DNA of 27,976 nt from an uncultured Nitrososphaerota archaeon (GCA_964518475.1 CAZFGR010000021.1:1-27976), one strand, 5' to 3'; counted from the stretch's first letter, positions 6,722 to 26,388 are shown. Notes: generated by a model from the letters alone, not told the origin. Numbers and translations are program-made.

Positions 6722-7702
6722 TTAAAATAATCTCTTGGACTGAGGAATTATTTCATTTACAATTTTTGCTATTATATCTAAGCCACCTTTTCCCTCTAAT
6801 AGAGTGATTACGGATATTTTTCTTCTTCCTAGGTCTTTTAGTGATGTACCTAATACAAAGACTTGGAATCTATCAATGACTATCCATCTATCATGAACTA
6901 AACTTGTAGAAAAAAGCATAATTCGGTGTCCATACTTTTTAGAATACTTTCTGCAAGCTTTTATCAACTTTTTATGCTTCGTTAGTGGATTCTCATTCTT
7001 CCCATGACCATTAATTATGATGAGAGAGACTTCAGGATTTAAATTTGTGCAGATAAATTCTATACTTTCTCTATCAATATAAGGATCTACTAAAATAACT
7101 TCTTTTCTTGCCAGTTTTATGATTTCTTTTATAAGGATTAAAGCTTTATCACGTTCGTTAGGTTTGATCGTACATGGTAAATCAAATGATAATTTTCTGG
7201 AAAGCTTAATCCCCCGTATTCTTATATCAACAATACTTCGATATTTATCTTTCAAAGACATTATTAGACTATATGATTGCGGTTTAAGACGTTTTCTTGA
7301 TTTCTTAGAAACAAGCACCAATACTAGAACAATTCTTTCATTATTATATTCCGCTTCTCTACAGATATCCTCAAACTTTTTCACAATGTTGCGGATGATG
7401 CCTCTTCTGAATTTATATATAAAATCGATACATATGTAGGTTCTAGGTTCTGAATCAATGAGAAGAAGAATTCCCACAGGCTTATTATAGATTCTCGGTT
7501 CTCTCTCAATGATCTTAATTTTACTGTTTAAACCACTTAGTCTTTCCTTCAGGGCGTAAGCACACGTTATAATATGGTTTCTGAGCAATTTCTCCGAGTG
7601 ATATATAAATCTCTCACTTGTCTCTTCTATTATTCTTAATATCTGATTCACTAGGTTATTGATATCGAAGTTCACCACCTCTTTGTGAGCATTCCTGATC
7701 AC
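6722..7702 (-). CDS. Degenerate REase-fold domain + C-terminal PLD-like (HDR-type) domain; may be the 3' part of a fused gene with 7656-8552
   Basis: EVILVDPYID and VHDRWIVID...LGTSLKDLG PLD-like motifs. The N-terminal EREPRI...ILLLID...ICIDF segment resembles a PD-(D/E)XK fold without catalytic residues. Frame is open upstream to 7774. Confidence 0.7.
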   Translation of the reverse strand: MIRNAHKEVVNFDINNLVNQILRIIEETSERFIYHSEKLLRNHIITCAYALKERLSGLNSKIKIIEREPRIYNKPVGILLLIDSEPRTYICIDFIYKFRRGIIRNIVKKFEDICREAEYNNERIVLVLVLVSKKSRKRLKPQSYSLIMSLKDKYRSIVDIRIRGIKLSRKLSFDLPCTIKPNERDKALILIKEIIKLARKEVILVDPYIDRESIEFICTNLNPEVSLIIINGHGKNENPLTKHKKLIKACRKYSKKYGHRIMLFSTSLVHDRWIVIDRFQVFVLGTSLKDLGRRKISVITLLEGKGGLDIIAKIVNEIIPQSKRLF

Positions 7703-8552
7703 TTCTATAGAAATACCGCTTTCGTGTAGAGGAACTTCGTTTTTTGTTTCGATTAGATATTTTTTTAACTCCCTTTAATATCTCTCTTAATTTCTGAGTA
7801 CTGGAGGATATCTCTATCAAGTTCTTTTCATAATTGAATAACATCTTAGAAAATTCTTTAATTGCTTCTAATTTCTTTTTTAACTCTTTTTGAGTAGTAG
7901 GTTCTATAATTCCTCTCTTAGTTAAAAATTCAATAGTTTTGCTCACACTCTCTTCAAGTTTTCTAAGTCTTCTTTTTATTTCTTCTATCTTAGGACCAAG
8001 TATACTCACGTCCAATGGACCTGTAGCTCTCGATGTAAAGGGTCTAAATTCTTTACTCAGGACATCAATACCCTGATTAATTAACGTAAGAATCCTACGC
8101 TTTGCTATTTCTTTCTCATCAAATTTTACCATAGCATCATAAGCAAAAATATTCCAAAGGATATTAAGTAGTATAATGATGCGACTGATTTTATCATGCT
8201 CAGATAGGATAATCGCAACATATCCCCATGACGTTTTATCTCTTATGAACCCAAGAGTTTTCAGTGTTACTAAAATTATTCGGTTGATAGTCGTATCACT
8301 TAATTTCCTATCTCTTTTTTCATTTAATCGTTTAAGCGCATCTATTGGGGTGTAGCCTTCTTTAAGTAATTCAATTAGATAAAGAAGCTCGGAGAATTTT
8401 AAATCATACCGAAAATATTTTACGGTTTTGCTTGTTTGAACGAATTTATCACATACTGGGCACTCACCATACACTACTCTTCCCTTCATATTAATTGATC
8501 TTATTGGACATCCACAAGTAGGGCACACAAATATATGCCCTTCTGCCTTCAC
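7656..8552 (-). CDS. Zn-ribbon + winged-HTH-like protein with a helical C-terminus
   Basis: CPTCG...CPVC; LLKEGYTPIDALKRL...LSDTTINRII...LKTLGFI; GGGGGTGA RBS. Confidence 0.65.
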   Translation of the reverse strand: MKAEGHIFVCPTCGCPIRSINMKGRVVYGECPVCDKFVQTSKTVKYFRYDLKFSELLYLIELLKEGYTPIDALKRLNEKRDRKLSDTTINRIILVTLKTLGFIRDKTSWGYVAIILSEHDKISRIIILLNILWNIFAYDAMVKFDEKEIAKRRILTLINQGIDVLSKEFRPFTSRATGPLDVSILGPKIEEIKRRLRKLEESVSKTIEFLTKRGIIEPTTQKELKKKLEAIKEFSKMLFNYEKNLIEISSSTQKLREILKGVKKISNRNKKRSSSTRKRYFYRSDQECSQRGGELRYQ

Positions 8553-9673: not shown

Positions 9674-11001
9674 ATGAAGTTGAGTACTGACAATGTAATT
9701 AATCATAAGATAAAAGAAGACATTTATGCTAAGGTGTGTAGAGAATCAAAGAAACTATGTCCGCGTTTGGTACTTAGTCCATTATGGAGGCTTAGTCTCG
9801 CTAGTATAACTAGGATGGCTCCTCAGACAGCTCTCGCAATATCTGATGAGGGCGATGCAGTTATTTAAAAGGCTTAGTGAATACTGGATGATTCTTGATA
9901 GAAGTGGCAAATATGAAATCTGCGGAGAAAGAGGTCATGAGATTGATGAAGATTGGAGATACTATATTTATAATGGTAAGGAATAAGTCATTTCTCCTGA
10001 TACACTAAAAAAGGTTCTTCTGAAGAACTTAGAGGCGTGGCATACCTAGTGGAGCTAAGACTACTATGTAAAAAATGTCATTTGGCTAAACATTTGGGCT
10101 ACGCTTTAGTTCATAAGAAGATTGAGGAGGCAATGGAACATCTAGCGAGAATTAATAACATGGATCTAAGAGAGGTTATAAAACTAGCAAAGGAAGCCTT
10201 TCGAATTCATTCAAAACTCAGTCATATACGAAATTGGACCATAAAGATAGGGAATCTTAGAAACATGGATGAAGAACTTAAAGAGAGGGTTGAGGATCTT
10301 CTAAACTTTATGTATAAAAGGGGTTTCTTCACTTATGGTGGCTGGCTCTATTATAGGAATCCAAGATATGATGAAAGAATAAAATCAAGAGTAGCCCAGG
10401 AAACCTCTTTGATCTTATCAAAAGCTATAAATAGAGCTAGTACAAGCGATGTGTCGAGTGAAGAGTGGCAAAGGAGTCCCTTGGAGGTTGTAAAAGAGGA
10501 GCTTATTAACCAAGGTATCCAAGTACTTGAACACGAATTTAGGAAATTCATCAGTTATTTGATTGAAGAGAATGAATGGCAAAAACTACTACAGCAGACC
10601 ATGAATAAAGTGAATATTAGAGAAACAAGTCCTGATAACTCCATTATGGAGCTATTAGATAATGACATTTTGACAAGAAAATGGATGGTATTCATACCAC
10701 AACACTATACCCTAAAGTCTTCCGACACATCCTAGACGCGTTAGAAGAGGAAGAGCTAGCATACAGCGCAAAAATAACGTGCATAAAGGAAGACTATATA
10801 AGGAAGAGCGAACTACCAGTAATCATCTATGCCCCCTCAGCTATTGCGGTAAAATATGTCACCAACGCAGCTAAGGTTATGAAAAAGGTATTAAAAGAAT
10901 TCCACGTAGATAAGAAGATATTTTTTAAACCCGACGTTTTCACCATCAAGGGAATATATTCAGGTAAAGCATCTCATAAATCATACATTTACATCTTCTG
11001 A
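9674..11001 (+). pseudogene. HNH endonuclease-DUF1917 (Bles03/eIF4E-like) fusion, disrupted
   Basis: LCPRLVLSPLWRLSL; KYEICG...EIDEDWRY; LLCKKCHLAKH (HNH). Then KWMVFI, SAKIT, VIIYAP, FFKPDVFTIKGIYS (DUF1917). Lesions near 9865, 9985, 10010 and 10700. Confidence 0.7.
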
Positions 11002-11165: not shown

Positions 11166-12305
11166 TTATGAACTCTTAGGTTTCATAATATAAACATTGT
11201 AGATGTTATTCCCTCTCGGACCTATGTTTCTTTGTGAAAAACGCTCTTCAAATTTTTGTAAGTAAAAATGCTTGCTAGCTTCTTTTTCAAGTTCTCTCAA
11301 AATATCCTCCTTTTCTTCATGCAGTATCAGAACTACACGTCGACAGACTCTAATTAACCGCAGAAACTTTCTCAATTTAAGTAAATAATATCGTAAATCT
11401 TTACCCTGTTTCGGATTTACTGTTAACTCAGACCTAAAGTTAAATCGAATTTTTTTACCTAATCTTTGTTCCAAAAGCTTCGGTAACTTACTATTGCGGA
11501 ACCAAACCCAATAAAAATAGGATAATTCAAGATATTGAATTTCATCACTATGAGGGGGATCAGTAATCACAGTATACTCTGGCAAATATCTTAATGAAAA
11601 AGCTGATTTAAGTAATAAGCTGTTTAATGAATTTTCAGTATAACTTATTTGAATGCCACTAAACGATTTGAAATAATTTAGGAATTTCCTAGCACGTCTC
11701 TTGAACAATTTGATAGGATCTTCTTCGTTATGTTTCTTTGGAATCCAATAAGACGGCACACCCCAAGACCCCGAATTCTTTCTTTTCATTTTACTGGAAT
11801 CAAATAAGATTGAAGCAAATGTTAAATAAAGGGCTATAGATGTTCTAAATGATAGCTGCTGGGAGAAGTTATCTATTATCTGCAACATACATCGCAAGAC
11901 ATTGTAATTTCTTTGTGAAAAGAAATCAGTTATCCTATTCGCATTTCTCTTCTTATAAAACCATTGTCCATTACTATATTTCAAAAAATCTCGTTTAAGA
12001 GGAGGAAAATCAGGTATATCTGGGAGCGATTTCTCTAAACTTTCTAAGATGCGCTCGACAGCTAATTGGTACTCATCAGGATTTGCAGAAGCTACTTGAA
12101 CATGCGAGATTAACCAAGCAAACACATTTATATCACTATATTTAAAATATTTCTCAAGTTTAATAGCAGCTAAAGTAACAGATCCAGCACCCCCAAATGG
12201 ATCAACAATAATTTCATCTGTTGAATCTATATATTTCTGTATCATAGCAACTGGTTTTCTTCCCCAGTATCTTACTGGGAGAAAGTTAGGTTGCATAAAG
12301 TCCAC
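11166..12305 (-). CDS. Amino (N6-adenine/N4-cytosine) DNA methyltransferase, alpha motif order, small COG1743-like
   Basis: YWGRKP, motif I IVDPFGGAG, DIN, motif IV ITDPPH followed by IQYLELSYFYWVW. Confidence 0.85.
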   Translation of the reverse strand: MDFMQPNFLPVRYWGRKPVAMIQKYIDSTDEIIVDPFGGAGSVTLAAIKLEKYFKYSDINVFAWLISHVQVASANPDEYQLAVERILESLEKSLPDIPDFPPLKRDFLKYSNGQWFYKKRNANRITDFFSQRNYNVLRCMLQIIDNFSQQLSFRTSIALYLTFASILFDSSKMKRKNSGSWGVPSYWIPKKHNEEDPIKLFKRRARKFLNYFKSFSGIQISYTENSLNSLLLKSAFSLRYLPEYTVITDPPHSDEIQYLELSYFYWVWFRNSKLPKLLEQRLGKKIRFNFRSELTVNPKQGKDLRYYLLKLRKFLRLIRVCRRVVLILHEEKEDILRELEKEASKHFYLQKFEERFSQRNIGPRGNNIYNVYIMKPKSS

Positions 12306-12364
12306 CAGTGCGTTCTAAAGTCATATCATCAATTATACTTTATTTCTATCATCATCTATTTTTT

Positions 12365-13387
12365 TCAAGAATTGTTTATTAATCGTGAAATTAATTCTTG
12401 TATTCTTTTTAAGGTATCCTCTATAGTAGATTTTGAGCATCGAGCCTTGTAAAAGGCTACTTTAAATTCTCCCCGCTTAGTTGGAGCAAGTCTTAATCCA
12501 GATAAATCGGACACTCTAAATTTTTGTACAATTTTAGATAATTCCGCATAATCATATGCAACAAATCTAACTAGGATTCTCCATAAATCCTCGGTCCTCA
12601 TGTTTATGGTTATGCCCATCTTATCAAAAATTTGCTGAATAGATTTTACAATGACTTTTGAATCAACAAATGGATTCGCAATCTCTAGTTTCTTTGGAGC
12701 TTTACACCAGGCTACATAGGTGGCTAATAGAATTATTTCCCGTAAGATTATATTAGATGGATCTACTTCTATTACCGACCTTCGGAGAATTCTTAGAACT
12801 ATCTCTATTAAACTTGAAAGTTTATTCCTCTTCACTTTCTTATTAAGGATGAATGGGATGGGTTGGCATAGTATTTTACAATGCTTAGGAGAGTTTAAAA
12901 TACCACAAATATGTTCAAGCAAGACAGTACTAGTTTTTTCATCAAGTTTTTTGAATGTTTCAAGGATCATTATAATACTATATTTTTTATTCCTATATAT
13001 TAATCGAGCTAACTCTTCATTCTCAATAATTTTTGCAACAATCCCTATTCCGAAAATTTTAATTTTCTCTGGGATTCTCTTAATGAGATCTTCTTCATTT
13101 CTAATATCCTGAGGCCGAATACCTCCTTCTTTTAAGATTAAAATAATAGTATCATCAGGATTTAGACTTAAAATCATCTTACGATATTTCTTATTCAATC
13201 CCCAAATTCGTATTTTCTCATATCGTTTATTTAAAAGAAAGATTTTTTGATCTTCTTCGGCAAGTATATTAACTAAGTCGTTAAGTTTTACTCCTTCAAT
13301 GAGTGTTGAAATATTTCTTCTTTCGGGACTCTTTATAGAAGGTAAAGAGAGAATTAGAAATTGAATTTTTCTTACTTTATCTCTCAA
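12365..13387 (-). CDS. PUA/EVE-like putative modified-base reader + C-terminal winged helix
   Basis: IWGL...LNPDDTIILI...IFGIGIVAKIIENEELARLIY...YSIIMIL pattern; C-terminal LWRILVRFVAYDY...LAPTKRG. Confidence 0.55.
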   Translation of the reverse strand: MRDKVRKIQFLILSLPSIKSPERRNISTLIEGVKLNDLVNILAEEDQKIFLLNKRYEKIRIWGLNKKYRKMILSLNPDDTIILILKEGGIRPQDIRNEEDLIKRIPEKIKIFGIGIVAKIIENEELARLIYRNKKYSIIMILETFKKLDEKTSTVLLEHICGILNSPKHCKILCQPIPFILNKKVKRNKLSSLIEIVLRILRRSVIEVDPSNIILREIILLATYVAWCKAPKKLEIANPFVDSKVIVKSIQQIFDKMGITINMRTEDLWRILVRFVAYDYAELSKIVQKFRVSDLSGLRLAPTKRGEFKVAFYKARCSKSTIEDTLKRIQELISRLINNS

Positions 13388-13919
13388 TGATCTGTCCCCT
13401 CTCTTTTAGTCTATCATACTTTGCGAAAATCTCTTTAATTACTTGTTCATGTAACACATTGTATGGCTCACTACTTCTAGGAGCATTATAAATCAACTTA
13501 CCAAAAACAAAATTTTTGAGATCTTTATCCTTCTCAGTAAATTCTTTAAGAGTTCTATAATCTTCCTTCTCTATTTTAATTATTCCTACAAAGCTTATCT
13601 TATGTGATAACTGAATTACTAAATCTAGCAAACTAAGCGCTTCTCCAGCTAATGCTATATATGTTTCATTAGAGAATATGCTATTAAGAATCGCTTTTGT
13701 GAAGCCCTCTAATACTTTGTCTCTTCGCGACTTCACTTCTATGGATAATATCTTCTTATCCTCCGATCTATAGAGCATAACATCAACTTCTACGTGACGT
13801 CCTAAGAAGTTGCTTATAATTTTTGATTGAAAAGAAATAATGGCAATATCATAGTTTAACGCTTTAAGCAAAACTCGAGCTAGAGGTTCGTAATATGCAA
13901 ATTCATTCTGATTTGCCAT
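13377..13919 (-). CDS. PD-(D/E)XK nuclease
   Basis: NEFAYYEPL, EVDVML, ILSIEVKS, FSNETYIA, VGIIKI. Confidence 0.8.
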   Translation of the reverse strand: MANQNEFAYYEPLARVLLKALNYDIAIISFQSKIISNFLGRHVEVDVMLYRSEDKKILSIEVKSRRDKVLEGFTKAILNSIFSNETYIALAGEALSLLDLVIQLSHKISFVGIIKIEKEDYRTLKEFTEKDKDLKNFVFGKLIYNAPRSSEPYNVLHEQVIKEIFAKYDRLKERGQIIER

Positions 13920-14452
13920 TATTTGGCACCAAGGAAAATTTCTTCGATTACCTCATCAATTAAGTCCTTAATTTTTCCTTCCGTAATTCCTAAGCTAATA
14001 CATCGGTGTCTGAATTTTTCATCCGTGTAGAATCTATACACTAGAGAAAGTTTCCCTAATGTTTCATTATCCATAAGATTTAGCCATCTTATAGCCATTT
14101 TTAATTGATTATATTTAAAGAGCAATAATTTATTGAAAAATTTTAGTCTGAGCTCTTCGTAAAGTCGGTTATCAATTACTGTTATGATTGTGAGTAATTT
14201 TATTTCATGATTACCTATTTTAAGATTTGATGGAATGCTCTTAAAAAGTCTCTCTATATTATGTTTTATGCTTCCTTTTCTTGTTGAAGCTAAGATGTAT
14301 AGAGCGAAAATTTCGTTATCTTCTATTATAGAAAAGTGATAAAATGTTGAATCTTCGACTACTCGATCTTTAAACTTAGATCTATTCAGTATAGTTCGAA
14401 ATATTAACTTCCATAAGTCCATTCTGTATTGCCATATTCTAAATCCCATCAT
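13919..14452 (-). CDS. Hypothetical protein, possible inactive REase fold
   Basis: GGGAGG RBS; overlaps both neighbours (ATGA, TAATG). YHFSII...IFALYIL alpha/beta pattern lacks the D/ExK residues. Confidence 0.6.
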   Translation of the reverse strand: MMGFRIWQYRMDLWKLIFRTILNRSKFKDRVVEDSTFYHFSIIEDNEIFALYILASTRKGSIKHNIERLFKSIPSNLKIGNHEIKLLTIITVIDNRLYEELRLKFFNKLLLFKYNQLKMAIRWLNLMDNETLGKLSLVYRFYTDEKFRHRCISLGITEGKIKDLIDEVIEEIFLGAK

Positions 14453-15498
14453 GTCAGTCTTGCCTCCCTATAAAACCATTGAATGCACTCTTCAATCAAA
14501 ATATCAAGGGGCTTGTATATTTTTTTCAACTCTGATGCAGTAAGCTCCCTAATCTCATTTTGTCTTGCGGTTTCTAAGATTTTTTCAAATATCTCTCTTG
14601 CAATTCTTGGAGGTTTATTTTTTATTTCTAACTCGTCCAATATTATCTCGAGTGATTCTCTTGTAAATGGATAAAGAGGGTTTTGTTTGACCTTTTCGAG
14701 AAGTCCCAATTTTGCTAACTGATCCTCAGCAAGTCTCTTTCTCTCGATATATGCTTTTATAAATTCTCGTAAATCATCAATAGTTGAGATAACTCCCCTC
14801 TCATTTAGATTAAGTAAAGTAACTTTGAGACCTCCCGAATATAGATCTCTATGATATTCTGCCATTTTCTCCCATACAGTTTCTAAACTAGAAATAACCA
14901 AAAATGAACCTATAGGAAGAGAGATTATTAATTCGTAAAGAAAATCATAGATCATTCTCTCTTCTTTATCACTCGCTTCTTCGATTACATTTTCTAACTG
15001 ATCAATAGCTATGAAGACTCTCTTATCATGTTCATTAATTAATTCCATTAATAGATTAACTAAGTTCTTACGCAAATCTTTGTAAGTTAGCTTGCTTATA
15101 GCTCTAATGCTTACATTAGTGAGGATGGAAGTCGTTGTTCTGAGGTGTACATTAAGCTTATCTATTTCCGTTTTGAGCTTCTTAATAATTTCTAAATACA
15201 ATTCATGAAAACTGGCTCTATCTAAATCAACGCCTCGGACACGAATAGCTATATGGTTTTTTTCATGAAATTCTTTCATAATGTATTTACATAGAGATGT
15301 TTTGCCAGCTCCTCTCTCTCCAAATATTATAATTCTTTCCGCGGTTCGTTTTTCAAATACATTTTTTATTCTAGCTAAAGCCTCATCCCGTATTCCTCCA
15401 ACATTAGCAAGTATTACTTCTTTCTCTAATATAGACTCAGCATCTTCTGGGTATCTAAACGGATTATCGTAAAGACCATAGTGATGATACGAAAGCAT
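14449..15498 (-). CDS. AAA+ P-loop ATPase (ExeA/Orc1-Cdc6/BrxD-like neighbourhood)
   Basis: YGLYDNPF N-terminus, Walker A GERGAGKT, Walker B VFIAIDQLE, LYPFT and PPR lid motifs. Confidence 0.85.
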   Translation of the reverse strand: MLSYHHYGLYDNPFRYPEDAESILEKEVILANVGGIRDEALARIKNVFEKRTAERIIIFGERGAGKTSLCKYIMKEFHEKNHIAIRVRGVDLDRASFHELYLEIIKKLKTEIDKLNVHLRTTTSILTNVSIRAISKLTYKDLRKNLVNLLMELINEHDKRVFIAIDQLENVIEEASDKEERMIYDFLYELIISLPIGSFLVISSLETVWEKMAEYHRDLYSGGLKVTLLNLNERGVISTIDDLREFIKAYIERKRLAEDQLAKLGLLEKVKQNPLYPFTRESLEIILDELEIKNKPPRIAREIFEKILETARQNEIRELTASELKKIYKPLDILIEECIQWFYREARLT

Positions 15499-15814
15499 AA
15501 CCTCTCGTCCTCGTCATATCATGTATAATACCCACAATACACCGAATTTAAAATAGAATATAAATGATGGAAATTAAAAAATAGCGTTAAGACTTTATTC
15601 ATTCAAACCTTTATAAGTTTAACAAGCGTAAAACACGAGTTTTGGAAAATGTATACCTCTAGGATAATTGCTTCTTATGCGAATCTTAGCTACATATATG
15701 CAGCAAAGATAGTACACAAGTAGTAAGCGTCGATATTTTGAAATTCCCTGAAGATTAAAGTAAAAAGAATATTAACTTAGAGTTTCTTCTCCGTTGTAGA
15801 TTGTTAGTGACTTT

Positions 15815-17102
15815 TTACTTATTCAACGATTTCAGCACAATCTTAATTCTTGCATTATATCGCATCTCTATGTTCTCCAATCCAAGCGCTTTTCTAGCAA
15901 TTTTATTTAGTAGAATTCTTTCTCCTAGGCACACCTCATTATAATACCTTGGTGCTCTCTCCGCGTACTCTTTAAATTTGCTTATAGCGAAAATTCTTGG
16001 CCTTATAGATTTTCCTCTGAAATTTATCTCTATTTCTCGACCTAATATCACTAGATACGTATCAGCCACAACAGCTGCTGCGATGCCATCTCTCTCTAAA
16101 TAGTCTAGCTCGTAAGGCGCTTTGCTAACGTTATGCACAACTATTTCGTCGGGGATCGTTATTCCTAATTTTTCTAATCCACTCAATTTAATATTACGTC
16201 TTATATCACCGAATTTTTCATGAAACTTTTCTGCTGATTCACCGCAAATGCATGTGATTGCCAATGCTATTTCCTTGCACATTCTATTTTGTATCTCATT
16301 TCTTAGATCTTGAATAAATATCTTATCATTTATTTCAAGGATCGGATCAATGATATCTCGAAGATAGACTCCATATATTCCAGCCAGTAACACCTCGATC
16401 AAATATTTTTTTCAAATCTTCTACATTGCCGCATCTTTTTAAGCAGTAACTATAACTTTCCGCAGCATTCATCAGTTTCTCTATTCTTTCCTCGGCTTTC
16501 ATTGACAAGTGCCCTGCACCAGTGCCATATCTACCAGGAGCGATGAATATAATTGCGACGTCCCCATTATCAAGAATTAGGGGGTGAGGAATATAATGTA
16601 TTGATGTTCCACCTAACTCCTCGTATAGTATTTTTCTATACTTTCTCACATTAGTCGTTGATAATATCCCGTCTTGAGAAACTTTTTTAGCTAACTTATG
16701 AAGATACTCCCCAACACTTAATTGCTCTTTCTGAGCTTTATCTATGAGCTTTAACGATAATTCTCTGCTGAACCCCTCTCTTGCGCAAATCTCTGGAAAG
16801 TAATCTCTCTTCACTAATAATCCAACACCAACGAATCCCTCATCAGGAATATAGCAAGGCTCTACAAGTCTACCTTCTAAAACATAGTTATCAATATCCA
16901 TTCTCAAACATTTACCAGTGCTAGATACCGGCTTAGCAAATCCTCTCAAACCATTGGGAATATGGATCAATTTTATATCAAGAAGAACAGAACGGCGCAG
17001 ATGCTTATCAAAATTTCTAAAAAACCCATGCAAACTCATTAAGGATCCATAACCAAATACTATCTCAACATCACCGTGCAAGCATAATCCCCCTAAAACC
17101 AT
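15815..17102 (-). CDS. Gamma-glutamylcyclotransferase (GGCT/ChaC)-fold protein, split by a +1 frameshift (ORFs 16347-17102 and 15815-16402; about 428 aa if joined)
   Basis: VFGYGSLM, GLRGF, VGVGLLV...ICAREG. The downstream frame opens exactly at the A7 run (16406-16412). Confidence 0.65.
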
Positions 17103-17226: not shown

Positions 17227-19707
17227 TTAACGCATTCTATCAACCTCTTCTATTAATCTATTAATGATTACTTTTGCCGCATTTATGAAGTCGTTTTTAT
17301 TCTTGCTTGTAATTAAGCGGTAATATATCTCCTTGTCAATTAATTGGATTGTGAAAAGAAGGTCATCTGTAAGCTCAATTTCTTCGAGATCTTTAATAAT
17401 TCTCTTTATCTCTGGTAATAACCCCACTGCTTGCCACTCCCATATTTTAACAGTTGTGTTTTCTTCGTCTTTTCTTCCTGCAATATAGAACCCAAGAGCT
17501 AACAAAGAGACCTTATATTTTACTCTTAGATAAGCTAGCAGTATCGCGGCTCCTATTTCAGCTGTCTTCGGGTCGAATGGCACTTCAAAACTGTAACCAT
17601 ATGAAAAATCACTGTAAACGAATTTTGGTACGTGGCATAGGCTGACCGAAATCTTCTTTACAGCCTTTAGGAACAGTTCTTTTCCTTCCATTGTTAGCTT
17701 CTTTGGACTCCTGCTCTCAAGTATCCACACAACTCCTCGGGGATAATACCTAATAAGACCAAAACCTTGAGGAACAGATACGTCAACATAACTTTTTGGT
17801 TCTAAATAGCCTTCTAAGTAATCAGAGACAATATCTGTTTTTTCACCCCACTTTCTCTTTATGGCCGAATATTTATAATAGGCATTAATTAAAAATGCCA
17901 CGTTGTTCCTAAAGGAATATCTTATAGCGTATCTTAATGAAACTTCGAGTACTCTTGGAGCTCCCGGTAGACCCATTCTTATAATGACACCATCACTTTG
18001 AGGATCGATGTAACCAAGTTGGAACTTAAGTACTAAATCTCGTCTAGACACATCCTCCAGAACAATAGTCCTGTTTCCAGCTAGAACCTCCCGTGAGACT
18101 CCATAGGGTGGGCCATATTCGTAGAATTGGAAGTTCCTCCAAACAATCCTACCTAACTTAGTTGGTTCTAATCTCGGAAATACCCTAGCTAAACCAAGAT
18201 TAACCAGTAAATCATATTCTTTTGAGGTTAAACCTTCACCAGATTTTCTGAATAATTTGTAGAGAGCTGAAAAGAGTGCGAGGAACTCATTGTTGGGAAA
18301 TATGAAAAGTCTCTCAATACCGAGTTGAATCCAATTTCTCAAAGATTCGAAACCCCGTCTTAAGACTATTCTATCCTTATCACTAATCGGAATAATTATC
18401 GATTCTGTGAAGGGGGTTTCTTCCCTCCTGCCTTTACGCCCCTCCCTCTGGATAAATTGTTTAACCTCGGCTGGAAGCCCATAATGAACTATCCTGATAA
18501 CCGTTCCAATGTCTATACCTTGTTCAAGTGTTCTAGGCGAGATTATTATCTTTATTTTATTCTCTCGTGCTAGTTCTTCTATATGTCTTCTAACGTGCTT
18601 GTCAATCAGGTGGTGATGAGTAGCTACTAAACTTTCATCCACGCCGACTTCTCTACACTTTGTCTTCAACCTTTTAGCAAGTTTTTCAGCATCCTCGATT
18701 GTCCTAGTGAATACTATTGTTACTCCATCTTCATCACCCTTTAGATATTCCAGCAAAAGATCAATGGTTCTTGTTTCAAAGATTTCCCTAGGAACTATAC
18801 TGAAGAACTCCTTTGGAGGAAGTTCTCTTTGCAAATTAATAATAACTTCGAACAAATTTTCTGGGAAATCCTTAAGCAAATTCGCCATCTCTGGCTTCTT
18901 AGAAATATTCTTCCCTAACTTATCTATTGCTAACTTGTCCCCAAGAACAATATAACATCGATTCTCAACCCTCCTAGCTTTCCCCCTGATAACTTCTATC
19001 TCCCTACCATTAATTCGCGATAGTATTTCTCCTAAATTCTCAGCACCCTCCAAAGTAGCCGTTAGGACAACAACTCTAGGTTTCTTAACGCAATAATCCC
19101 GAACAAGGATTTCGATCATCTTTATGAGTAACGCAGCCCTAGAAGACCCATAATAATCCAATTCATCAATAACTATTAAATCAAGATCCCTAAAAAACCA
19201 CTTCAGTAACTTCCCACCAGCCTTTATTTCGGTCATCAAGTAAGCCGGGTTGGTTACAACAATAAGCGTTTTCTCGGGCAATCCAGAAATCTGCTTGGCA
19301 ATTGTAGCGTTTACCTCCAGAGCATGAAAACCTATCGCTTCGCAATAGTCCTTAAGTCTAGATATCTGATCACCGGCCAAAGCCAAATTAGGGTATATAG
19401 CTAAAGTTTTCACACATTGCGATAAGGAATAAATAGCCCAAGCCTCAGTCTTTCCCGAACCAGTACCAGAAACCAGAATAATATTCTTACCCGAAATAAG
19501 AGCTTGGAAAGCTTCAAATTGATGTCTATAAAGCCGTTTATTAAGAATGCTTCTCAGTCTTCTACATTTACTAGATAGGATCTCAAAACTAGGAAAGATA
19601 TCACAAAATTTTACATTCACAAGCTCTGGTCTCTCTTCTCTCTCAATAACATTAACGTATTTTAAGCTTAGTTTGTTTAAGACCGATGAAGTATCGACAA
19701 TTTTCAA
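17227..19707 (-). CDS. SF2 helicase, Hrq1/MrfA(YprA)/SftH-like
   Basis: LYRHQ, GTGSGKT, YPNLALAGDQ, TNP, DELD, TAT, IVFTRT, TLEQGIDIG, QREGRKGR. Confidence 0.9.
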   Translation of the reverse strand: MKIVDTSSVLNKLSLKYVNVIEREERPELVNVKFCDIFPSFEILSSKCRRLRSILNKRLYRHQFEAFQALISGKNIILVSGTGSGKTEAWAIYSLSQCVKTLAIYPNLALAGDQISRLKDYCEAIGFHALEVNATIAKQISGLPEKTLIVVTNPAYLMTEIKAGGKLLKWFFRDLDLIVIDELDYYGSSRAALLIKMIEILVRDYCVKKPRVVVLTATLEGAENLGEILSRINGREIEVIRGKARRVENRCYIVLGDKLAIDKLGKNISKKPEMANLLKDFPENLFEVIINLQRELPPKEFFSIVPREIFETRTIDLLLEYLKGDEDGVTIVFTRTIEDAEKLAKRLKTKCREVGVDESLVATHHHLIDKHVRRHIEELARENKIKIIISPRTLEQGIDIGTVIRIVHYGLPAEVKQFIQREGRKGRREETPFTESIIIPISDKDRIVLRRGFESLRNWIQLGIERLFIFPNNEFLALFSALYKLFRKSGEGLTSKEYDLLVNLGLARVFPRLEPTKLGRIVWRNFQFYEYGPPYGVSREVLAGNRTIVLEDVSRRDLVLKFQLGYIDPQSDGVIIRMGLPGAPRVLEVSLRYAIRYSFRNNVAFLINAYYKYSAIKRKWGEKTDIVSDYLEGYLEPKSYVDVSVPQGFGLIRYYPRGVVWILESRSPKKLTMEGKELFLKAVKKISVSLCHVPKFVYSDFSYGYSFEVPFDPKTAEIGAAILLAYLRVKYKVSLLALGFYIAGRKDEENTTVKIWEWQAVGLLPEIKRIIKDLEEIELTDDLLFTIQLIDKEIYYRLITSKNKNDFINAAKVIINRLIEEVDRMR

Positions 19708-19840
19708 ATAAGTGCACCTTGAATCCTTCTGGTCATTTTAGGTAAATAAGGATGTATTACGAACATCTTTTATATAAGTAAATAAAAAATTAAAATTATG
19801 GTAACAAATCCTTAATTCATCCACACTAGGGAGATATGAA
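19708..19840. promoter_or_regulatory. Divergent promoter region between helicase and methylase
   Basis: 133-bp AT-rich spacer with TTTTATATAA at 19768-19777, TATA-like on both strands; RBS-like sequences at both ends. Confidence 0.55.
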
Positions 19841-22636
19841 ATGAGACTCGTTGAGAAGTATATACCTCTAGCAGAGATAAACTGTATGGCAAAAATCGAA
19901 ATGTCCGGTCGTATGATTTCTAAAGAATTCTTAGAGGAATTCACAAGAATATTCAGGATTACTCCGAGATACTCTATCCCTCCCAGAATAAATAATATTC
20001 ATTATTGGCCAGCGAGAAGACCAACAGTTCCTAGTAGGTTTTTAACTCTTTATACGTTTCTCTCAGCAGATTTCACAGACGAACAAAAAATAAAGAAAGC
20101 TCTTGGCGTTGAGATTCTTATGGAAAGAATAAAAATGCAAGAAAGAATTTCTCCAATAATTTACATGGTAAAGCCAGATATTAAAACGGTAAGAGAAATT
20201 GTTTCAAAACAAAATGCAGTGGTAGTTGATCCAATGGCGGGAGGAGGAGCTATTCCTCTAGAGAGTTTAAGATTGGGATTCCGTACTATAATCGGAGATT
20301 TGAACCCCCTCGCATACTTGTTATTAAAAGCTACCATAGAATACCCCGCAAGATACGGTTCAGAGTTATTTAAGAGAACTTTAGATGAAGCTAAAAGGTT
20401 AATTAATTGGGCTAAATCAGAATTTTCCTCAATATTTCCTCAAAATGGTGGGCGATGCACAATTTTCCTAAGATTATATAGGCATCAATGTAATTCATTG
20501 ATCCCCATTTTTCATTCGCAAAAACTCTCTAAAACAAGGAAATTCTACTTTGTACTAGACGATGATAACAGGATTGTTAGAGTGAATCTAGAATCTGGTA
20601 TCGAACTTCAAAAGGGCATCTGTCCATTCTGCAAAATGCCGTATAATGAACACTCGGCGATGAGTAAGTGGGTTGAAAAACATAAAACCCTAATCGATAA
20701 GATTTTAAGCCCCCCGATCGACGAAGATGCATTGTATGAAATGTTAACCGAGACTTACTTACCAATAGCTATTCAAGTAAGTAAAAGTAAATATTTAGAT
20801 GCATCAGAGGAGCCCCAATACTATTACAAAGCTGTTAAAGCTTTAGCAAATTATGTTTCTGAACTATCAAGTGCTGGTTTATTATTAGACGAATTAATAC
20901 CAATGAATAAAATTCCGAGGCAAAATGAGTTCTTTAATAAAGTGATAGAGCAAGGAATAACTTCATGGCACTATCTATTAAGTCCAAGACAACTGTATGT
21001 TTTTCTCAAACTCATCCACTACGTAAGACAAAGAATAGAAACACTAATGTATTCCGATAAGGAATTTGGTGTTGCTGTTGGTCTATACTTAGCACTTGGC
21101 ATATCCAAATATCTTGCGTATAATACTATGCTTTCATCATGGAATGCAAGTGAAGGCGTCGCTCGTGATTTACCCGCATTTAAGAGAGCTTCTTTAAAAC
21201 CTGATTTTGTTGAAATTTATCCTCATATTTTCTCGTTACCATGGGTTTTCGAGATCGATGTCGCCGAATCTGGTAAGTCTTACTTAACTCGCGGAGGTAT
21301 TCTACCCGTTCTTAAGCATCTATGTGAGAATCTCCAAGGCCTTAATGATCGTGTTAAGATTTATTTATGGGATGCTAGAAAACTGTCCTATGCTCTCCCA
21401 AAACACTCTATTGATTTAATTCATGTTGATCCCCCATACCTTGAACAGCAGGATTACTCGGGAATATCCGAGTTTTTCTGGGTATTTCTCAGAAGAATGC
21501 TATTACCAGCTATTATGCAAGGGTATCTATTTCGTAATGATGAAGTTAAGGTTTCTGGGTGGTCTCCGCTTTCCGACGAAGCTCCTCGAGATAAGGAGAT
21601 TCCTGAAGCCTCCGTCATTGTCAGGTCTAACGGGAAGAGGACTGCAGAACTATTTTGGAAGGGGATGAATGAATTCTTTAAATCTGCTTATGATGTTCTT
21701 AAAGATGATGGATATTTCCTCATATGGTTCACTCATAGCTCTAATGATGCTTGGGAGAATCTGTTCAGATATCTCTATTTGAATGGCTTCATTGCTGCTA
21801 AGACTTGGCAAATATGGAGTGAATCACCCCAAAGGATGGTTTCTAATTTCGTATCATCGTTCTTTACTAGTATGGTAATCGTTGCTAAGAAGGGAAAGAG
21901 GGAAACAATATTAACTCCTGATGCTGAGGCATTTATTAGAGCTGTTGATAATGCTGTTAGGGATTCGTTAGAAACCACATGGAGTATTTATGATGGATTG
22001 ACTAGAGAAGCTGTAGTTATGGCTTTGGCCGATGGTCAAGCTGTCGCTACCAAATTTGAGCTAGCAGGGCAAATTCCCGAGTTTTCATTCTCAATGCTCT
22101 TTGATAATGCTACTAGATATGCCATAGAATCTTTGCTTAGGCATGTTGCATCGAAGTATGGCATTGAGAGATTATATGAAGAATACGTAAGCACAGCCGA
22201 TGTTGATTCAATACTTTACCTTTTAGCTTTATTGACTATGCCTGAAGGAATGCCTTTTGTGCCTCATGATTTCTTCGAGAAAGTTAAGAAGATAATCAGA
22301 GCCAAAGGATTCTTGCTAAAGAAGAAAAGCATCAAAATTTATGAAGTACCTATAGGTCGAGCACTAATTGAGTATGCGGGAGTTAGAAAACATCGTCACA
22401 CAGCGATTAGAGCTACTGAACTTATATTAATGGCTGTAAAGGATGTCCCAAGACTTGGTAGTAAGAGATTCGCTGACGTGATAGTTAACGAGGGATCGTT
22501 CTCGAAGACCGATGTAGCATATGCCCTCTTCATGCTAAAGATCTTGAAACAAAGTTTTCTGAATATTCTTGGGGTAACACCCTTAATAAAGGATTCTATT
22601 ATAGATTCTTTAGAAGAGATTATCAGGAGGATGTGA
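19841..22636 (+). CDS. DUF1156/COG1743 adenine-specific DNA methylase with a partial Zn ribbon
   Basis: IHYWPARRP, VVDPMAGGGAIPLESLRLG, DLNPLAY, HQC...CPFC, HVDPPY...YSGISEFFWVFL, WFTH. Confidence 0.92.
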   Translation: MRLVEKYIPLAEINCMAKIEMSGRMISKEFLEEFTRIFRITPRYSIPPRINNIHYWPARRPTVPSRFLTLYTFLSADFTDEQKIKKALGVEILMERIKMQERISPIIYMVKPDIKTVREIVSKQNAVVVDPMAGGGAIPLESLRLGFRTIIGDLNPLAYLLLKATIEYPARYGSELFKRTLDEAKRLINWAKSEFSSIFPQNGGRCTIFLRLYRHQCNSLIPIFHSQKLSKTRKFYFVLDDDNRIVRVNLESGIELQKGICPFCKMPYNEHSAMSKWVEKHKTLIDKILSPPIDEDALYEMLTETYLPIAIQVSKSKYLDASEEPQYYYKAVKALANYVSELSSAGLLLDELIPMNKIPRQNEFFNKVIEQGITSWHYLLSPRQLYVFLKLIHYVRQRIETLMYSDKEFGVAVGLYLALGISKYLAYNTMLSSWNASEGVARDLPAFKRASLKPDFVEIYPHIFSLPWVFEIDVAESGKSYLTRGGILPVLKHLCENLQGLNDRVKIYLWDARKLSYALPKHSIDLIHVDPPYLEQQDYSGISEFFWVFLRRMLLPAIMQGYLFRNDEVKVSGWSPLSDEAPRDKEIPEASVIVRSNGKRTAELFWKGMNEFFKSAYDVLKDDGYFLIWFTHSSNDAWENLFRYLYLNGFIAAKTWQIWSESPQRMVSNFVSSFFTSMVIVAKKGKRETILTPDAEAFIRAVDNAVRDSLETTWSIYDGLTREAVVMALADGQAVATKFELAGQIPEFSFSMLFDNATRYAIESLLRHVASKYGIERLYEEYVSTADVDSILYLLALLTMPEGMPFVPHDFFEKVKKIIRAKGFLLKKKSIKIYEVPIGRALIEYAGVRKHRHTAIRATELILMAVKDVPRLGSKRFADVIVNEGSFSKTDVAYALFMLKILKQSFLNILGVTPLIKDSIIDSLEEIIRRM

Positions 22637-22637
22637 G

Positions 22638-25600: not shown

Positions 25601-25676
25601 AAAAGCATTGATAATGGCGCTAATGAGTCTAATTAATCAAAGCGATGAAGTAGAGTTTAGAGCTGGTGCGGCATGA
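22638..25676 (+). CDS. DUF499-family AAA+ ATPase (BrxC/PglY-related)
   Basis: MGSGKTH, LILIDEL, RFERR, IVKRRI, YPFAP, LRGLLK; Pro-rich linker before a small C-terminal domain; starts 1 nt after the methylase stop. Confidence 0.85.
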   Translation: MPGLIKQYFENQGILEDTLAHLREIGSATQLAPSLGAFVEHFRDPQKTSSLEGFAKPDYFLPITELTDQFKSLLKDVVSAFKERNQLFIPLNVEMGSGKTHFLVLLFHLFYIIPRNKFVTSHPIVKKRLEEIQRISDYTIDLAENVLIIPADLIGHGYKTLIKFVATALSYIHSSIQKEFEAKSNELLPEALGRWLAEKLYQRIHVLILIDELYAALRRSDIKSEIIKILKFLYGFIERRISIIGISRDSGLVCIVASARQDLRAWQEEKSKFPDKDLVREIESFEKRFERRVYSIRGEWFRPEDIIRIVKRRIIRYLDNLDSLYKLFLQKYEKLIKDVLGVYAEGYLRDLALTYPFAPSILGLINKILAPEEDSDVPDAHHLRGLLKSLAKMTINAIYNNEDVISPALGEFGILGDLIPKRRAIWEKALKNAMNFIDAVLEDEKQKEFARKLLWAIFLKSITQRDDKLLKLARIKTLKEAELQLIRDLLADQYYLKSSLIGLKNVELRRIDHMLEILENYAGNVYHISLGDISGYVMITYENPKSIFRRMVNNRREKYEKMVIPELLNAAEGIIESRVFRTSRIDSKENITIELIDPDKDSIIKSLKRADNSRLRIYIVRSWKLYKQMKENITNEEVISLLNDLVSRIERAYEEAKANQYIFLTAVIIPSIDTDLVRDFLKSYCIFDVAGEFIRLYYEEPRSLFRNVDEDWLRFYEQLRLTIINDILRELGNYVAEYSKSALKLLLGGAIVYYSIFDNATIKDRFHEQVYLREAKEGARVGKISVRDVSMALQHLNSLEDAAIKPIIPTIIKGVTSKLKFTSDKSIIRETLKSVLLEYFKVRKTDVLRIPASMPVIYEKKIISTKEIFDDALKALSHEKRIKISEELEIHLEYVNGELVVKPIITPTPKTRSPTEEVGEIKVKTELQRGIEPPLKPPLEIIRITDKSEILNMLRNPESAIFSEPFELRLKVKGMLSISIKGRLSPEEKALIMALMSLINQSDEVEFRAGAA

Positions 25677-26386
25677 TTAATCAACTATTCTCACTATTTA
25701 ATGAAATACTATCCTATACGGGTAGGATTAACTACTATGATTTTCTAAAGGCCTTATTAATGGCGTACAAATATATAGAGCCAACATATCCCTTAATGAA
25801 TTTGGTTAACAAATTGTCTGGACTTATGAATCTTCTAGAGAGAGCTTCTGCTGAATTAAATAGTGAGATTATAGAGTATTATAAGGATACCTTATCAGTA
25901 ATTGATTCACGAGAGGTTTATCCGTTGCTCGTGGATAATCTTGGGTTAGCTGAGATAGTGGAGATATCAAAGCGATTTAGTTTAGTTTTGTCATTCTTTA
26001 TAATTAATGAGGAAGCCACCACACACTACTGGAAGACCCTCTTCAAAGTATCAACACTCAGAGAGTTTGCGAGGATATTCGGGGCTCAACTATTAAACTT
26101 TCCCGATAAAACGATAGATAATATCTCAGTTAATATTGATAATAGCGAGGGATTCTCTACACCTGATGAATTGTCTAGCTTTCTCTATAATAGAGTGGCT
26201 ATGAGACTAATTAATATTCTCTCCGGGGTTAGTTCTAAGCAAATGTTGTTGATAAGTGATCACGGATATGATATAATTTACTATAAATCTAAGTATATCC
26301 CATGTCATGGAAATCTCTGCAAAAAATTTGGAGGAAAGTTGGTTTTATCTAAGATAGCTCCTATAATTATCATAAGGAGGAATTAA
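25673..26386 (+). CDS. Minimal PglZ-like alkaline-phosphatase-superfamily protein
   Basis: LLVDNLG, ATT (candidate Thr nucleophile), FPDKTID, LLISDHGY, CHG; ATGA overlap with the ATPase. Confidence 0.8.
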   Translation: MINQLFSLFNEILSYTGRINYYDFLKALLMAYKYIEPTYPLMNLVNKLSGLMNLLERASAELNSEIIEYYKDTLSVIDSREVYPLLVDNLGLAEIVEISKRFSLVLSFFIINEEATTHYWKTLFKVSTLREFARIFGAQLLNFPDKTIDNISVNIDNSEGFSTPDELSSFLYNRVAMRLINILSGVSSKQMLLISDHGYDIIYYKSKYIPCHGNLCKKFGGKLVLSKIAPIIIIRRN

Positions 26387-26388
26387 GT

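Follow-up and report, generated by a model that had tools for sequence, protein, structure and literature searches.

In McrBC and other type IV restriction systems a PUA-like reader is combined with an NTPase and a nuclease of PD-(D/E)XK type, and to our knowledge these systems carry no methylase of their own. Archaea also have ATPase_2 (PF01637)-DUF234 (PF03008) fusions of the COG1672 type, which are widespread and uncharacterised. In Pseudomonas aeruginosa, the eight genes of MADS (mad1-8) combine methylase-based discrimination of self from non-self with separate ATPase-nuclease modules (MAD3/4 and MAD7/8), and the detection model published in the preprint needs MAD6, MAD7 and MAD8. The DUF499-centred BR/Hma systems associate an ATPase, an N6-methylase and a nuclease, with PUA, ASCH or EVE readers recurrently attached (PMC12839542, PMC7641849). 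Much less is known of antiviral defence in archaea than in bacteria. Here, we analyse a window of 27,976 nucleotides (the whole stretch of DNA studied) from an uncultured sediment archaeon, in which five minus-strand genes at 15498-11166 form one tightly packed operon that PADLOC does not include.

Results

From P0001 to P0004 (Table 1) the overlaps between successive genes are 4, 1 and 11 nt long, and a gap of 59 nt precedes the methylase gene, P0005, as initially annotated. The start of P0005 is probably the ATG at 12296, because its database record has 376 aa and GGTGG lies just upstream; the spacer to P0004 would therefore be of 68 nt instead of 59. A GAGG ribosome-binding site can be read directly in the sequence 5 nt ahead of the P0001 ATG, and a separate promoter may drive the methylase. 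By their conservation these are real genes: the metagenomic contig L018 encodes a homologue of similar length for every one of them, with the gene order unchanged. Order and orientation of all five are kept there at 24-36% identity (E of 3.5e-38 for the ATPase, 6.8e-15 for P0002, 9e-25 for P0003, 1.8e-14 for P0004, and 8e-59 for P0005 at 32% identity), which agrees with the five-gene operon proposed in the initial annotation.

Table 1. Genes and intergenic regions of the operon.
Feature	Coordinates	Strand	Description
P0001 ATPase	14449..15498	-	349 aa ORF
P0002 REase-fold-like protein	13919..14452	-	177 aa ORF
P0003 PD-(D/E)XK nuclease	13377..13919	-	180 aa ORF
P0004 probable reader	12365..13387	-	340 aa ORF, TTG start
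P0005 methylase	11166..12305	-	379 aa ORF, GTG start
Upstream intergenic region	15499..15814		316 nt, AT-rich; presumed promoter region
Spacer before methylase	12306..12364		59 nt; TATA-like AAATAAAGTATAA (sequence read directly)

The Walker A motif of P0001 is GERGAGKTS (residues 61-69). Its family, aligned with 15 relatives adjoining the same methylase family, has a variant Walker B, IAIDQLE, with DQLE invariant, and the motifs YGLxxNPF and NPLYPFT. Matches to Pfam AAA_16 (2.1e-10), AAA_22 (1.1e-9) and ATPase_2 (1.3e-9) are all above cut-off, the last with 38.6 bits for a cut-off of 33.2 (39.4 bits in the genome search). The Walker motifs and these matches confirm a P-loop ATPase, and the profiles place it on the ATPase_2/AAA_16/AAA_22/STAND-ORC side. 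AAA_5, the McrB type, is absent among the best 25 of 40 Pfam matches (E up to 1), BrxC_BrxD reaches only E 0.025, and neither Pfam nor PADLOC gave a match to DUF499 or HmaC. The best PADLOC match is mad8, weak (5.4e-7) and covering most of the ATPase domain.

P0003 carries the catalytic motif D46...E61-V-K63, conserved in its 36% identical homologue in L018, so that the intact PD-(D/E)XK nuclease called earlier is upheld. Pfam DUF234 is matched at 1.7e-4 and 22.4 bits (cut-off 22.5) by profile positions 35-91 alone, and above cut-off, with 23.4 bits, in a six-frame search of the genome. Structure matches in the ESM Atlas are to MmcB-like, P4 cII and NERD-containing clusters (TM 0.64-0.68). The same genome encodes fused ATPase_2-DUF234 paralogues of 468 and 505 aa, which score 72-90 bits for ATPase_2 and 48-88 bits for DUF234, against 39 and 23 here.

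P0002 lacks the D...(D/E)XK motif, and no acidic/Lys triad is conserved with its 34% identical homologue in L018. Its ESM Atlas matches are to RmuC, Mrr_cat and Card1-endonuclease clusters (TM 0.49-0.53, best rows up to 0.57). The ten best family-bearing matches, taken on sequence features, belong to one family or clan, as happens for one third of shuffled proteins; the PD-(D/E)XK families among them include PDDEXK_3, MunI and PDDEXK_18. Pfam HamA is weakly matched (0.018). Given structure matches at TM about 0.5 and no catalytic motif, P0002 is likely a catalytically degenerate REase-fold protein serving as a non-catalytic partner, much as the initial annotation suggested.

P0004 is an orphan protein. 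Its only relative among 1.84e9 and 5.8e9 proteins is P0049 (24% identity, E 1.4e-8), and neither of the two matches Pfam. The N-terminal domain, about residues 1-200, has the motifs RIWGL...DDTIILI...IFGIGIVAK, and the C-terminal domain is helical with a conserved beta-hairpin, possibly a winged helix. AlphaFold models have pLDDT of 32 and 42 (<45). With the ESM Atlas model (pLDDT 0.71), residues 3-205 matched EVE, SRA_ScoMcrA, Mrr-N and McrB-N clusters, with TM of 0.41-0.49 by query and, for two standalone proteins of 183-188 aa, of 0.71-0.75 by row. Because of this structure search and of the motif that P0004 has in common with the c5, c21 and EVE families, we regard the N-terminal domain as probably PUA/EVE-like in this protein. 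The PUA/EVE assignment made initially has the standing of a lead, from reader-domain matches and shared motifs but not from sequence profiles, where matches to EVE, PUA, ASCH or SRA were not significant (NF002008 E 0.35; hhalign to the EVE family of related loci E 0.04).

P0005 has motif I (DPFGGAG, 35-41) followed by motif IV (DPPH, 249-252), and it has 43 homologues; within the family, D35-P-F-G-G-x-G and D249-P-P are invariant in 28 members and H252 is replaced by F in L018. It matches Pfam MethyltransfD12 (1e-4) and N6_N4_Mtase (8.9e-4), and in PADLOC MTase_II (3.6e-17) as well as PglXI, HmaB and DUF1156_MTase; the HmaB and DUF1156_MTase matches span just about 30-45 residues around motif IV. 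Its motifs and profile matches identify it as an exocyclic amino-methyltransferase (N6A/N4C), in line with the first call.

We then consider the loci of this methylase family (c1), which were sampled via the methylase, so that linkage counts are seen from its side. The family of P0001 (c2) is encoded within 6 kb in 12 of 39 non-redundant loci, and in nine of these 12 a PD-(D/E)XK gene is present as well, together with one for a "WG-motif" or EVE protein; among the 39, there was no case of a nuclease or WG gene lacking the c2 ATPase. About ten other archaeal loci hold the gene set rearranged. By sequence, the operon is one of three architectures with the same content in different orders: a c2 ATPase, a PD-(D/E)XK nuclease, a WG-motif PUA-like protein and a c1 methylase. 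Family c8 has the motif PD...FEVK and family c20 VD...IEAK. The same four functions recur in thermophilic archaea. One architecture adds a bona fide EVE gene. Such a gene (Pfam 2.2e-13, NF002008 4e-32) occurs in a sister locus with a 63% identical methylase, immediately upstream of the methylase gene, the position held here by P0004. The genes are therefore found together elsewhere, in L018 and in c1 loci, and with no named system completely matched in PADLOC the initial proposal stands on both points.

The operon is very rare. The P0003 profile matches one of 400 genomes of the phylum, the operon was not found in six genomes of the same genus (66-90% complete), and the reader and small-nuclease genes are almost without relatives among billions of proteins. 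The only other match to the ATPase profile in the 400 genomes is a more distant, BrxC/BrxD-like relative that adjoins cas1-cas4-cas2 on a 5.7-kb contig without methylase.

Discussion

Since the gene set recurs in one metagenome and in rearranged archaeal loci, an undescribed R-M-like virus defence module is the most likely function. We give slightly better than even chances to the operon being a self-contained, very rare module of this kind in a Thermoproteota-like archaeon. P0005 would methylate host DNA at N6 of adenine or N4 of cytosine, as a self-mark. P0003 would be the DNA-cleaving subunit, in complex with P0002 as a catalytically dead REase-fold partner, and P0001 an NTP switch, ATPase_2/STAND-like and not a motor of McrB type, by which the nuclease is gated or assembled. 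P0004 would bind DNA and inspect the modification state of a base in a PUA/EVE-like pocket, guiding the nuclease. Gene structure, domain families, catalytic motifs, synteny, co-occurrence and rarity come from the computation, whereas complex formation, the self mark, the ligand of the reader, ATP gating and an antiviral role are inferred. One might speculate that P0004 reads the mark of P0005 itself, as a positive licence or a veto for the ATP-gated nuclease, but we find this doubtful. If true, telling self from non-self would fall to a reader subunit of its own, not to a nuclease that fails to cut at methylated sites.

On the side of a defence module we counted translational coupling, synteny with L018, co-occurrence in c1 loci, content kept across architectures, the EVE gene of the sister locus, the Atlas lead for P0004, the fused paralogues, the defence island and rarity. 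Against it we counted the non-significant profile support for P0004, the TM of about 0.5 for P0002, sampling from the methylase side, the cas-adjacent ATPase relative and the helicase and nuclease genes found at seven of the 12 ATPase-bearing loci.

The operon lies among defence genes, with an Hma/BR-like methylase and helicase, a PLD-like gene and a Panacea gene as neighbours. The ATPase, nuclease and reader might not be autonomous but accessory to a larger system based on methylation, the methylase being shared with a helicase-nuclease effector or the set being joined to the DUF1156-methylase/helicase genes (Hma/BREX-related) at 17227-26907. We hold this to be rather unlikely. A helicase with a PLD or Cas4-like nuclease accompanies seven of the 12 ATPase-bearing loci, and a helicase with a PLD-type or other nuclease 29 of all 39 c1 loci; in L018 a helicase and a Cas4-like nuclease gene converge on the methylase. 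The module may therefore not act alone. The helicase of the window (17227-19707) has its best homologue in the fetched loci directly behind a c1 methylase in Metallosphaera javensis (E 4e-53), P0005 shares the signature DPP[YH]..Y..S.F.WV with the adjacent DUF1156-type methylase, and archaeal DUF499/COG1743 systems are recurrently accompanied by standalone EVE proteins (PMC7641849). Yet, the triad and the methylase occur without helicase or PLD (within 6 kb) in the other five ATPase-bearing loci, and the operon has both a methylase and a nuclease of its own. Here, the helicase gene lies beyond the 316-nt region and two unrelated ORFs, and hhalign found no similarity beyond the P-loop between P0001 or the c2 ATPases and the neighbouring 1012-aa ATPase.

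It is improbable, to a further degree, that two unrelated units are adjacent by chance, i.e. a type IV-like nuclease (ATPase, REase pair and PUA reader) directed against foreign modified DNA and a methylase that is orphan or belongs to another system. PUA, EVE and SRA readers are typical of modification-dependent enzymes, which are what P0004 matches in the Atlas, and a gap of 59-68 nt, with a TATA-like element in it, precedes the methylase. In the methylase tree P0005 is sister to a locus of architecture E (support 100/99), whereas P0001-P0004 have their nearest relatives in L018, which points to shuffling of methylase and effector genes. But the linkage of ATPase and methylase is preserved across three architectures, at identities down to about 22%, making chance adjacency in an island unlikely, and in EVE-linked R-M systems Bell et al. 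proposed that methylase and reader act as one system. That the module has no role in defence and serves epigenetic or repair purposes, e.g. as a methyl-directed nuclease in mismatch or damage processing, is very improbable: ATPase_2-DUF234 proteins have no known function, the genome has several paralogues and an archaeal OLD-family ATPase-nuclease has been shown to have its role in the cell cycle and not in defence (PMC12796447), but the patchiness is extreme, the setting is among defence genes and sequences diverge fast.

Comparison with described systems

An R-M-like defence module remains our preferred reading, and its layout, which the initial annotation could assign to no known type, matches no PADLOC system completely; the underlying logic, on the other hand, is shared with MADS and with the DUF499-centred, BREX-related systems. 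The likeness to MADS lies in methylase-based discrimination and separate ATPase-nuclease modules. MADS differs in its eight genes and bacterial host; P0002-P0004 match no mad model or other PADLOC entry, leaving the weak mad8 match of P0001 in place of the MAD6/7/8 set, and no correspondence of a PUA-like reader or a kinase was found between the two. With BR/Hma systems the operon shares the association of ATPase, methylase and nuclease and the motif IV signature of P0005. It differs in lacking DUF499, DUF1156, a helicase and PglZ, its PD-(D/E)XK nuclease is a small protein that stands alone, and the HmaB and DUF1156_MTase matches are short. BREX and DISARM were set aside as no PADLOC match to PglZ, BrxC, DrmA or DrmB was found among P0001-P0004.

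The McrBC-like machine proposed initially is not supported as homology. P0001 has no AAA_5/McrB match among its 25 best in Pfam, the nuclease is DUF234-like and not McrC, P0002 points weakly to HamA, and a methylase is conserved in the operon. The analogy is functional only, in that a probable PUA-like reader accompanies an NTPase and a nuclease of PD-(D/E)XK type; in the Atlas, P0004 matches readers from the N-terminus of McrB-, Mrr- and ScoMcrA-like proteins. Here, unlike in type IV systems, the reader is a separate polypeptide and a methylase belongs to the operon.

For the pair P0001-P0003 we favour a distant relationship to the archaeal ATPase_2-DUF234 proteins, from which it would derive by separation into distinct genes. 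As in the fusions, the ATPase precedes the nuclease, and the DUF234 match of P0003 covers the part of the profile with the D...EXK core. In contrast to the fusions, there are two ORFs with P0002 between them, coupled to a reader and a methylase. If the proposal works, it would give a function to these proteins, a system encoding a methyl writer together with a separate PUA-type reader, and a thermostable methylase/nuclease pair. If the reader indeed answers to the mark of its own methylase, the c2-ATPase/PD-(D/E)XK/WG-protein/c1-methylase set would be a distinct, archaea-specific class with writer-reader-eraser-like immunity.

A real, conserved and very rare operon

ORF calling on the minus strand reproduced the five-gene layout of the initial annotation, i.e. 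four head-to-tail ORFs overlapping by 4, 1 and 11 nt, with the fifth set off by 59 nt. For the fifth product, the amino-methylase P0005, the ATG at 12296 is a more likely start than that of the longer ORF, because the database copy has 376 aa and GGTGG lies just 5' of this ATG. Upstream of the ATPase gene (P0001) there is a 316-nt AT-rich stretch that includes a ribosome-binding site, GAGG. The window was searched for tRNAs and Rfam elements and has neither. It is contig C21 of a metagenome-assembled genome (G000; 2.33 Mb, 121 contigs, 91% complete). A search of sequencing runs found its DNA in full in only one sediment metagenome, possibly its source, and listed no RNA run containing it.

The operon is real, conserved and very rare. 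For the candidate reader P0004, searches that covered 1.84 billion representatives exhaustively with HMMER and 5.8 billion proteins twice by word index, and that included a profile search, recovered only one relative, P0049 (24% identity, E 1.4e-8). P0049 is encoded on L018, an 8.7-kb metagenomic contig present in ENA, Logan and JGI assemblies. Upstream of it are homologues of the ATPase (truncated by the contig end), P0002 and P0003, and downstream is a 429-aa methylase 32% identical to P0005. All five lie on one strand in the operon's order. That the order is kept at 24-36% identity speaks for selection on the set as a functional unit. Elsewhere relatives are scarce. Of 400 species genomes of the phylum, the P0003 profile matched that of the window alone, and it had no match in six same-genus genomes (66-90% complete). 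P0004 has no significant relative among 60 related genomes, where two weak, partial and stop-interrupted matches were seen (E 2.6e-4 and 0.008). The ATPase profile had one additional match, a 462-aa protein of a same-genus genome (locus L112).

Features of the operon, of its surroundings and of compared loci (window coordinates unless a locus or contig is named)
Feature	Coordinates	Strand	Remarks
P0001, ATPase	15498-14449	minus	349 aa
P0002, REase-fold-like	14452-13919	minus	177 aa
P0003, PD-(D/E)XK nuclease	13919-13377	minus	180 aa
P0004, candidate reader	13387-12365	minus	
P0005, methylase (longer ORF)	12305-11166	minus	
PaREP1 gene	188-727		8.3e-28
SocA/Panacea antitoxin-domain gene	1245-1685	plus	Pfam 7e-13; first of a small cluster
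Candidate PLD-type nuclease	6722-7702	minus	326 aa; C-terminal half matches PADLOC PDC-S05 (2.9e-18), DrmC weakly (2.6e-4)
Overlapping ORFs	8552-7656, 7702-6722	minus	frame change at A7 run, 7753-7766
Overlapping ORFs	17102-16347, 16402-15815	minus	frame change at A7 run, 16400-16413
Helicase-methylase neighbourhood	17227-26907		SF2 helicase (PADLOC SngC 2.6e-33, BrxHI 2e-23), 931-aa methylase, 1012-aa protein, two small genes
DUF1156/HmaB-type methylase	19841-22636		931 aa; PADLOC 3.8e-27
Genes convergent on the L018 methylase	L018:4409-8630		816-aa protein with C-terminal Cas4-like PD-(D/E)XK domain (PADLOC Cas4 5e-10); 587-aa helicase fragment (BrxHI 2.6e-19)
Methylase with helicase/PLD genes, Sulfurisphaera ohwakuensis (L007)	CP045484.1, 719157-736233		
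BrxC_BrxD-family ATPase locus (L112)	G004:C89:1-5675		Pfam 3.8e-15; ATPase directly upstream of cas2, cas4, cas1, after two unknown genes (238, 417 aa); 5.7-kb contig without methylase
Canonical ATPase_2-DUF234 genes of G000 (at least four)	C8:20612-21784, C19:28931-30118, C8:74059-75225, C8:66933-68083		one with TAG between its two domains

The ATPase and the nuclease-fold pair

The domain calls made at the outset are largely right: those of the ATPase P0001, the PD-(D/E)XK nuclease P0003 and the methylase P0005 hold, and the inactive REase of P0002 and the PUA domain of P0004 are probable. P0001 exceeds the Pfam cut-offs for AAA_16, AAA_22 and ATPase_2, matches DnaA, ORC/Cdc6, STAND and KAP more weakly, and has no match to AAA_5 among the best 25 of its 40 Pfam matches. 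Its best PADLOC match is mad8 (5.4e-7). The Walker A motif is GERGAGKTS, the Walker B motif hhhDQLE is invariant across its family (c2), and the family's common motifs are YGLxxNPFP, G.WGxGK[ST], DQLE and NPxYPFT. PDB sequence searches with P0001, the P0003 profile and the methylase profile yielded no match above the P-loop or motif-I level. Through the L112 protein, and by transitivity alone, a relationship of c2 ATPases to the BrxC/BrxD type is suggested. Comparison of the c2 family with the neighbouring 1012-aa ATPase by hhalign gave a probability of 1.8%, with no similarity seen beyond the P-loop. Long c2 ATPases bear a C-terminal extension of ~170 aa that might be a counterpart of P0002, a reading unsupported by hhalign, which linked the extension to neither P0002 nor P0003.

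P0003 matches DUF234 at the Pfam cut-off, and its D46...E61-V-K63 is retained in its sole homologue, on L018. Its ESM Atlas model (pLDDT 0.80) falls near PD-(D/E)XK-type clusters (TM 0.64-0.68). P0002 has one weak Pfam match, to HamA. In the ESM Atlas it is placed among PD-(D/E)XK families by sequence features, and its structure neighbours are RmuC, Mrr_cat and Card1-nuclease clusters (TM ~0.5). The polar residues it conserves with L018 (N46, S56, T57, D94) make up no D...(D/E)XK triad; the fold is likely, though unproven, to be that of an inactive REase. The predicted complex of P0002 and P0003 scored 0.24, below the 0.32 mark, and carries no weight either way.

The candidate reader

P0004 has no Pfam or PADLOC match. 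Its AlphaFold2 models are too low in confidence for use (pLDDT 31.9 with a 2-row and 42.5 with a 12-row alignment); the ESM Atlas model has pLDDT 0.71 and pTM 0.53. Atlas structure neighbours of residues 3-205 are an EVE/NmeDI cluster, SRA_ScoMcrA, McrB-like ATPases, ScoMcrA-like HNH enzymes and Mrr_cat proteins whose N-terminal domains are readers; two standalone proteins of 183-188 aa reach 0.71-0.75 in TM by row. The motif hWG[VIL]-x(7-15)-(G/D)D-hhhh is common to P0004 and to two protein clusters (c5 and c21) adjoining the same methylase family. The hhalign probability is 73-76% for P0004 with c5 and 98% for c5 with c21. Against the true EVE proteins encoded at these loci, the best alignments of all three are in register on the EVE VWGV...PGD, each being non-significant. 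The sole NCBIfam hint for P0004 is NF002008 (E 0.35, residues 59-87), the model that the true EVE proteins match at 4e-32. By eye, the predicted elements IQFLI / RIWGL / helix / DDTIILI / IFGIGIVAK / YSIIMIL follow the order of the EVE proteins, FWFCIL / VWGV / helix / GDRLVMY / IKGIYEAVSK / YRVKL. We regard a PUA-like fold as probable. For the winged helix proposed earlier in the C-terminal half, hints are limited to a conserved LR(L/V)APT...G hairpin and, in a model of low confidence, a helix-helix-hairpin pattern.

The methylase and the wider family

In P0005 motif I (DPFGGAG) lies ~210 residues ahead of motif IV (DPPH). The protein matches the D12 and N6_N4 models, PADLOC MTase_II (3.6e-17) and, over short stretches, HmaB, DUF1156 and PglXI methylases, and it shares the signature DPP[YH]..Y..S.F.WV with the 931-aa DUF1156-type methylase of the window. 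Named relatives are found in Sulfolobaceae, Vulcanisaeta and Ignisphaera; like the PaREP1 gene of the window, they indicate Thermoproteota. A phmmer match of the ORF at 10037-10735 to a methylase (3e-4) did not stand up to profile comparison.

We surveyed 100 loci, mostly fetched via the methylase, whose ORFs were called and clustered. Jackhmmer with P0002, P0003 and P0004 against all these ORFs found nothing outside L018. ATPases of family c2 adjoin methylases of P0005's family (c1) in three architectures. In architecture C, c5 (302 aa), c8 (315 aa) and the ATPase (475-493 aa) are divergent from the methylase; architecture D is the window's operon; in architecture E a 520-aa ATPase is divergent, an EVE gene immediately precedes the methylase, and c21 and c20 are convergent. 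Since c8 has PD...FEVK and c20 VD...IEAK, a PD-(D/E)XK gene and a WG-motif protein are present in all three architectures. Once methylases were collapsed at 90% identity, 39 non-redundant loci remained. The ATPase lies within 6 kb of the methylase in 12 of them, nine of which carry the full triad of ATPase, nuclease and WG/EVE gene; none of the 39 has nuclease or WG genes but lacks the ATPase. In the methylase tree P0005 and the enzyme of an architecture-E locus (63% identity) are sisters with 100/99 support, the L018 enzyme is separate on a long branch, and the ATPase-linked label needs 7 changes, a count inflated by truncated contigs. Methylase and effector genes therefore appear reshuffled.

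In cultured Sulfolobaceae the short methylase family of P0005 usually occurs with a ~950-aa helicase, a ~700-aa PLD-domain protein and a ~420-500-aa protein (e.g. L007, L013, L011 and L060). The helicase/PLD set alone, with or without the third protein, is present in 16/39 loci, and proteins of ~1150-1250, 746 and 203 aa accompany the methylase in 6/39. Both sets look like DISARM- or BR-like archaeal systems that may be uncharacterised.

Neighbouring genes

The 17227-26907 neighbourhood resembles in layout the 'Type-3 BR' DUF499-centred BREX-related system of PMC12839542. Its 1012-, 237- and 172-aa proteins have no Pfam or PADLOC match, so that DUF499, PglZ and iSTAND roles are candidate only. 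The candidate PLD-type nuclease lies in the same island as the operon. After both A7 runs comes almost the same sequence, (AAAAAAATAT[T/C]T[G/A]ATCGA); at 16412 a TGA immediately precedes the opening of the downstream frame, which is +1. These frame changes could be homopolymer assembly errors, phase variation or programmed frameshifting.

A possible mechanism

The genes look co-transcribed, the P0003 triad and the methylase are intact, the NTP motifs of the ATPase are conserved, and ATPase, nuclease, WG/EVE protein and methylase co-occur conservedly. We infer that P0005 would mark host DNA and that P0003, possibly joined with the degenerate P0002 in a heteromer, would cleave DNA. The STAND/ORC-like P0001 would be an assembly or licensing switch, not a translocating motor, and P0004 would bind DNA, with a PUA-type pocket to probe a base. 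P0004 might sense the cognate methyl mark, cleavage being then vetoed or licensed. Or, following the logic of Bell et al. (PMC7641849), it might sense foreign hypermodified bases, the methylase then shielding the host from another activity that modification blocks. The main rival to such a self-contained machine is that the triad is an accessory arm, the methylase being shared with a helicase and PLD or Cas4-like nuclease effector. Such an effector occurs in 7/12 ATPase-bearing loci and in L018, and the best homologue of the window's helicase among the fetched loci, in Metallosphaera javensis, directly follows a c1 methylase.

Relation to known systems

PADLOC gives no system-level match, and neither defence databases nor the searched literature describe this gene set. 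The McrBC-like machine first proposed survives as an analogy, not as homology: ATPase family, nuclease family and the presence of a methylase all differ, and membership fails on all three. The closest homologous architecture to P0001 and P0003 is the ATPase_2-DUF234 fusion. They look like a split, diverged version of it, because fused copies of 468 and 505 aa are found in the same genome. MADS requires MAD6-8, of which the operon has a weak mad8 match only. MADS and the DUF499-centred BREX-related/Hma systems are the closest in logic. Standalone EVE proteins recur beside archaeal COG1743-methylase/DUF499 systems, where reader and methylase were argued to act together (Bell et al., PMC7641849), and BR systems with PUA/ASCH reader modules are described in a 2026 BREX survey (PMC12839542). 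The operon is best classed as a putative R-M-like, ATPase-coupled defence with a separate, probably PUA-like reader.
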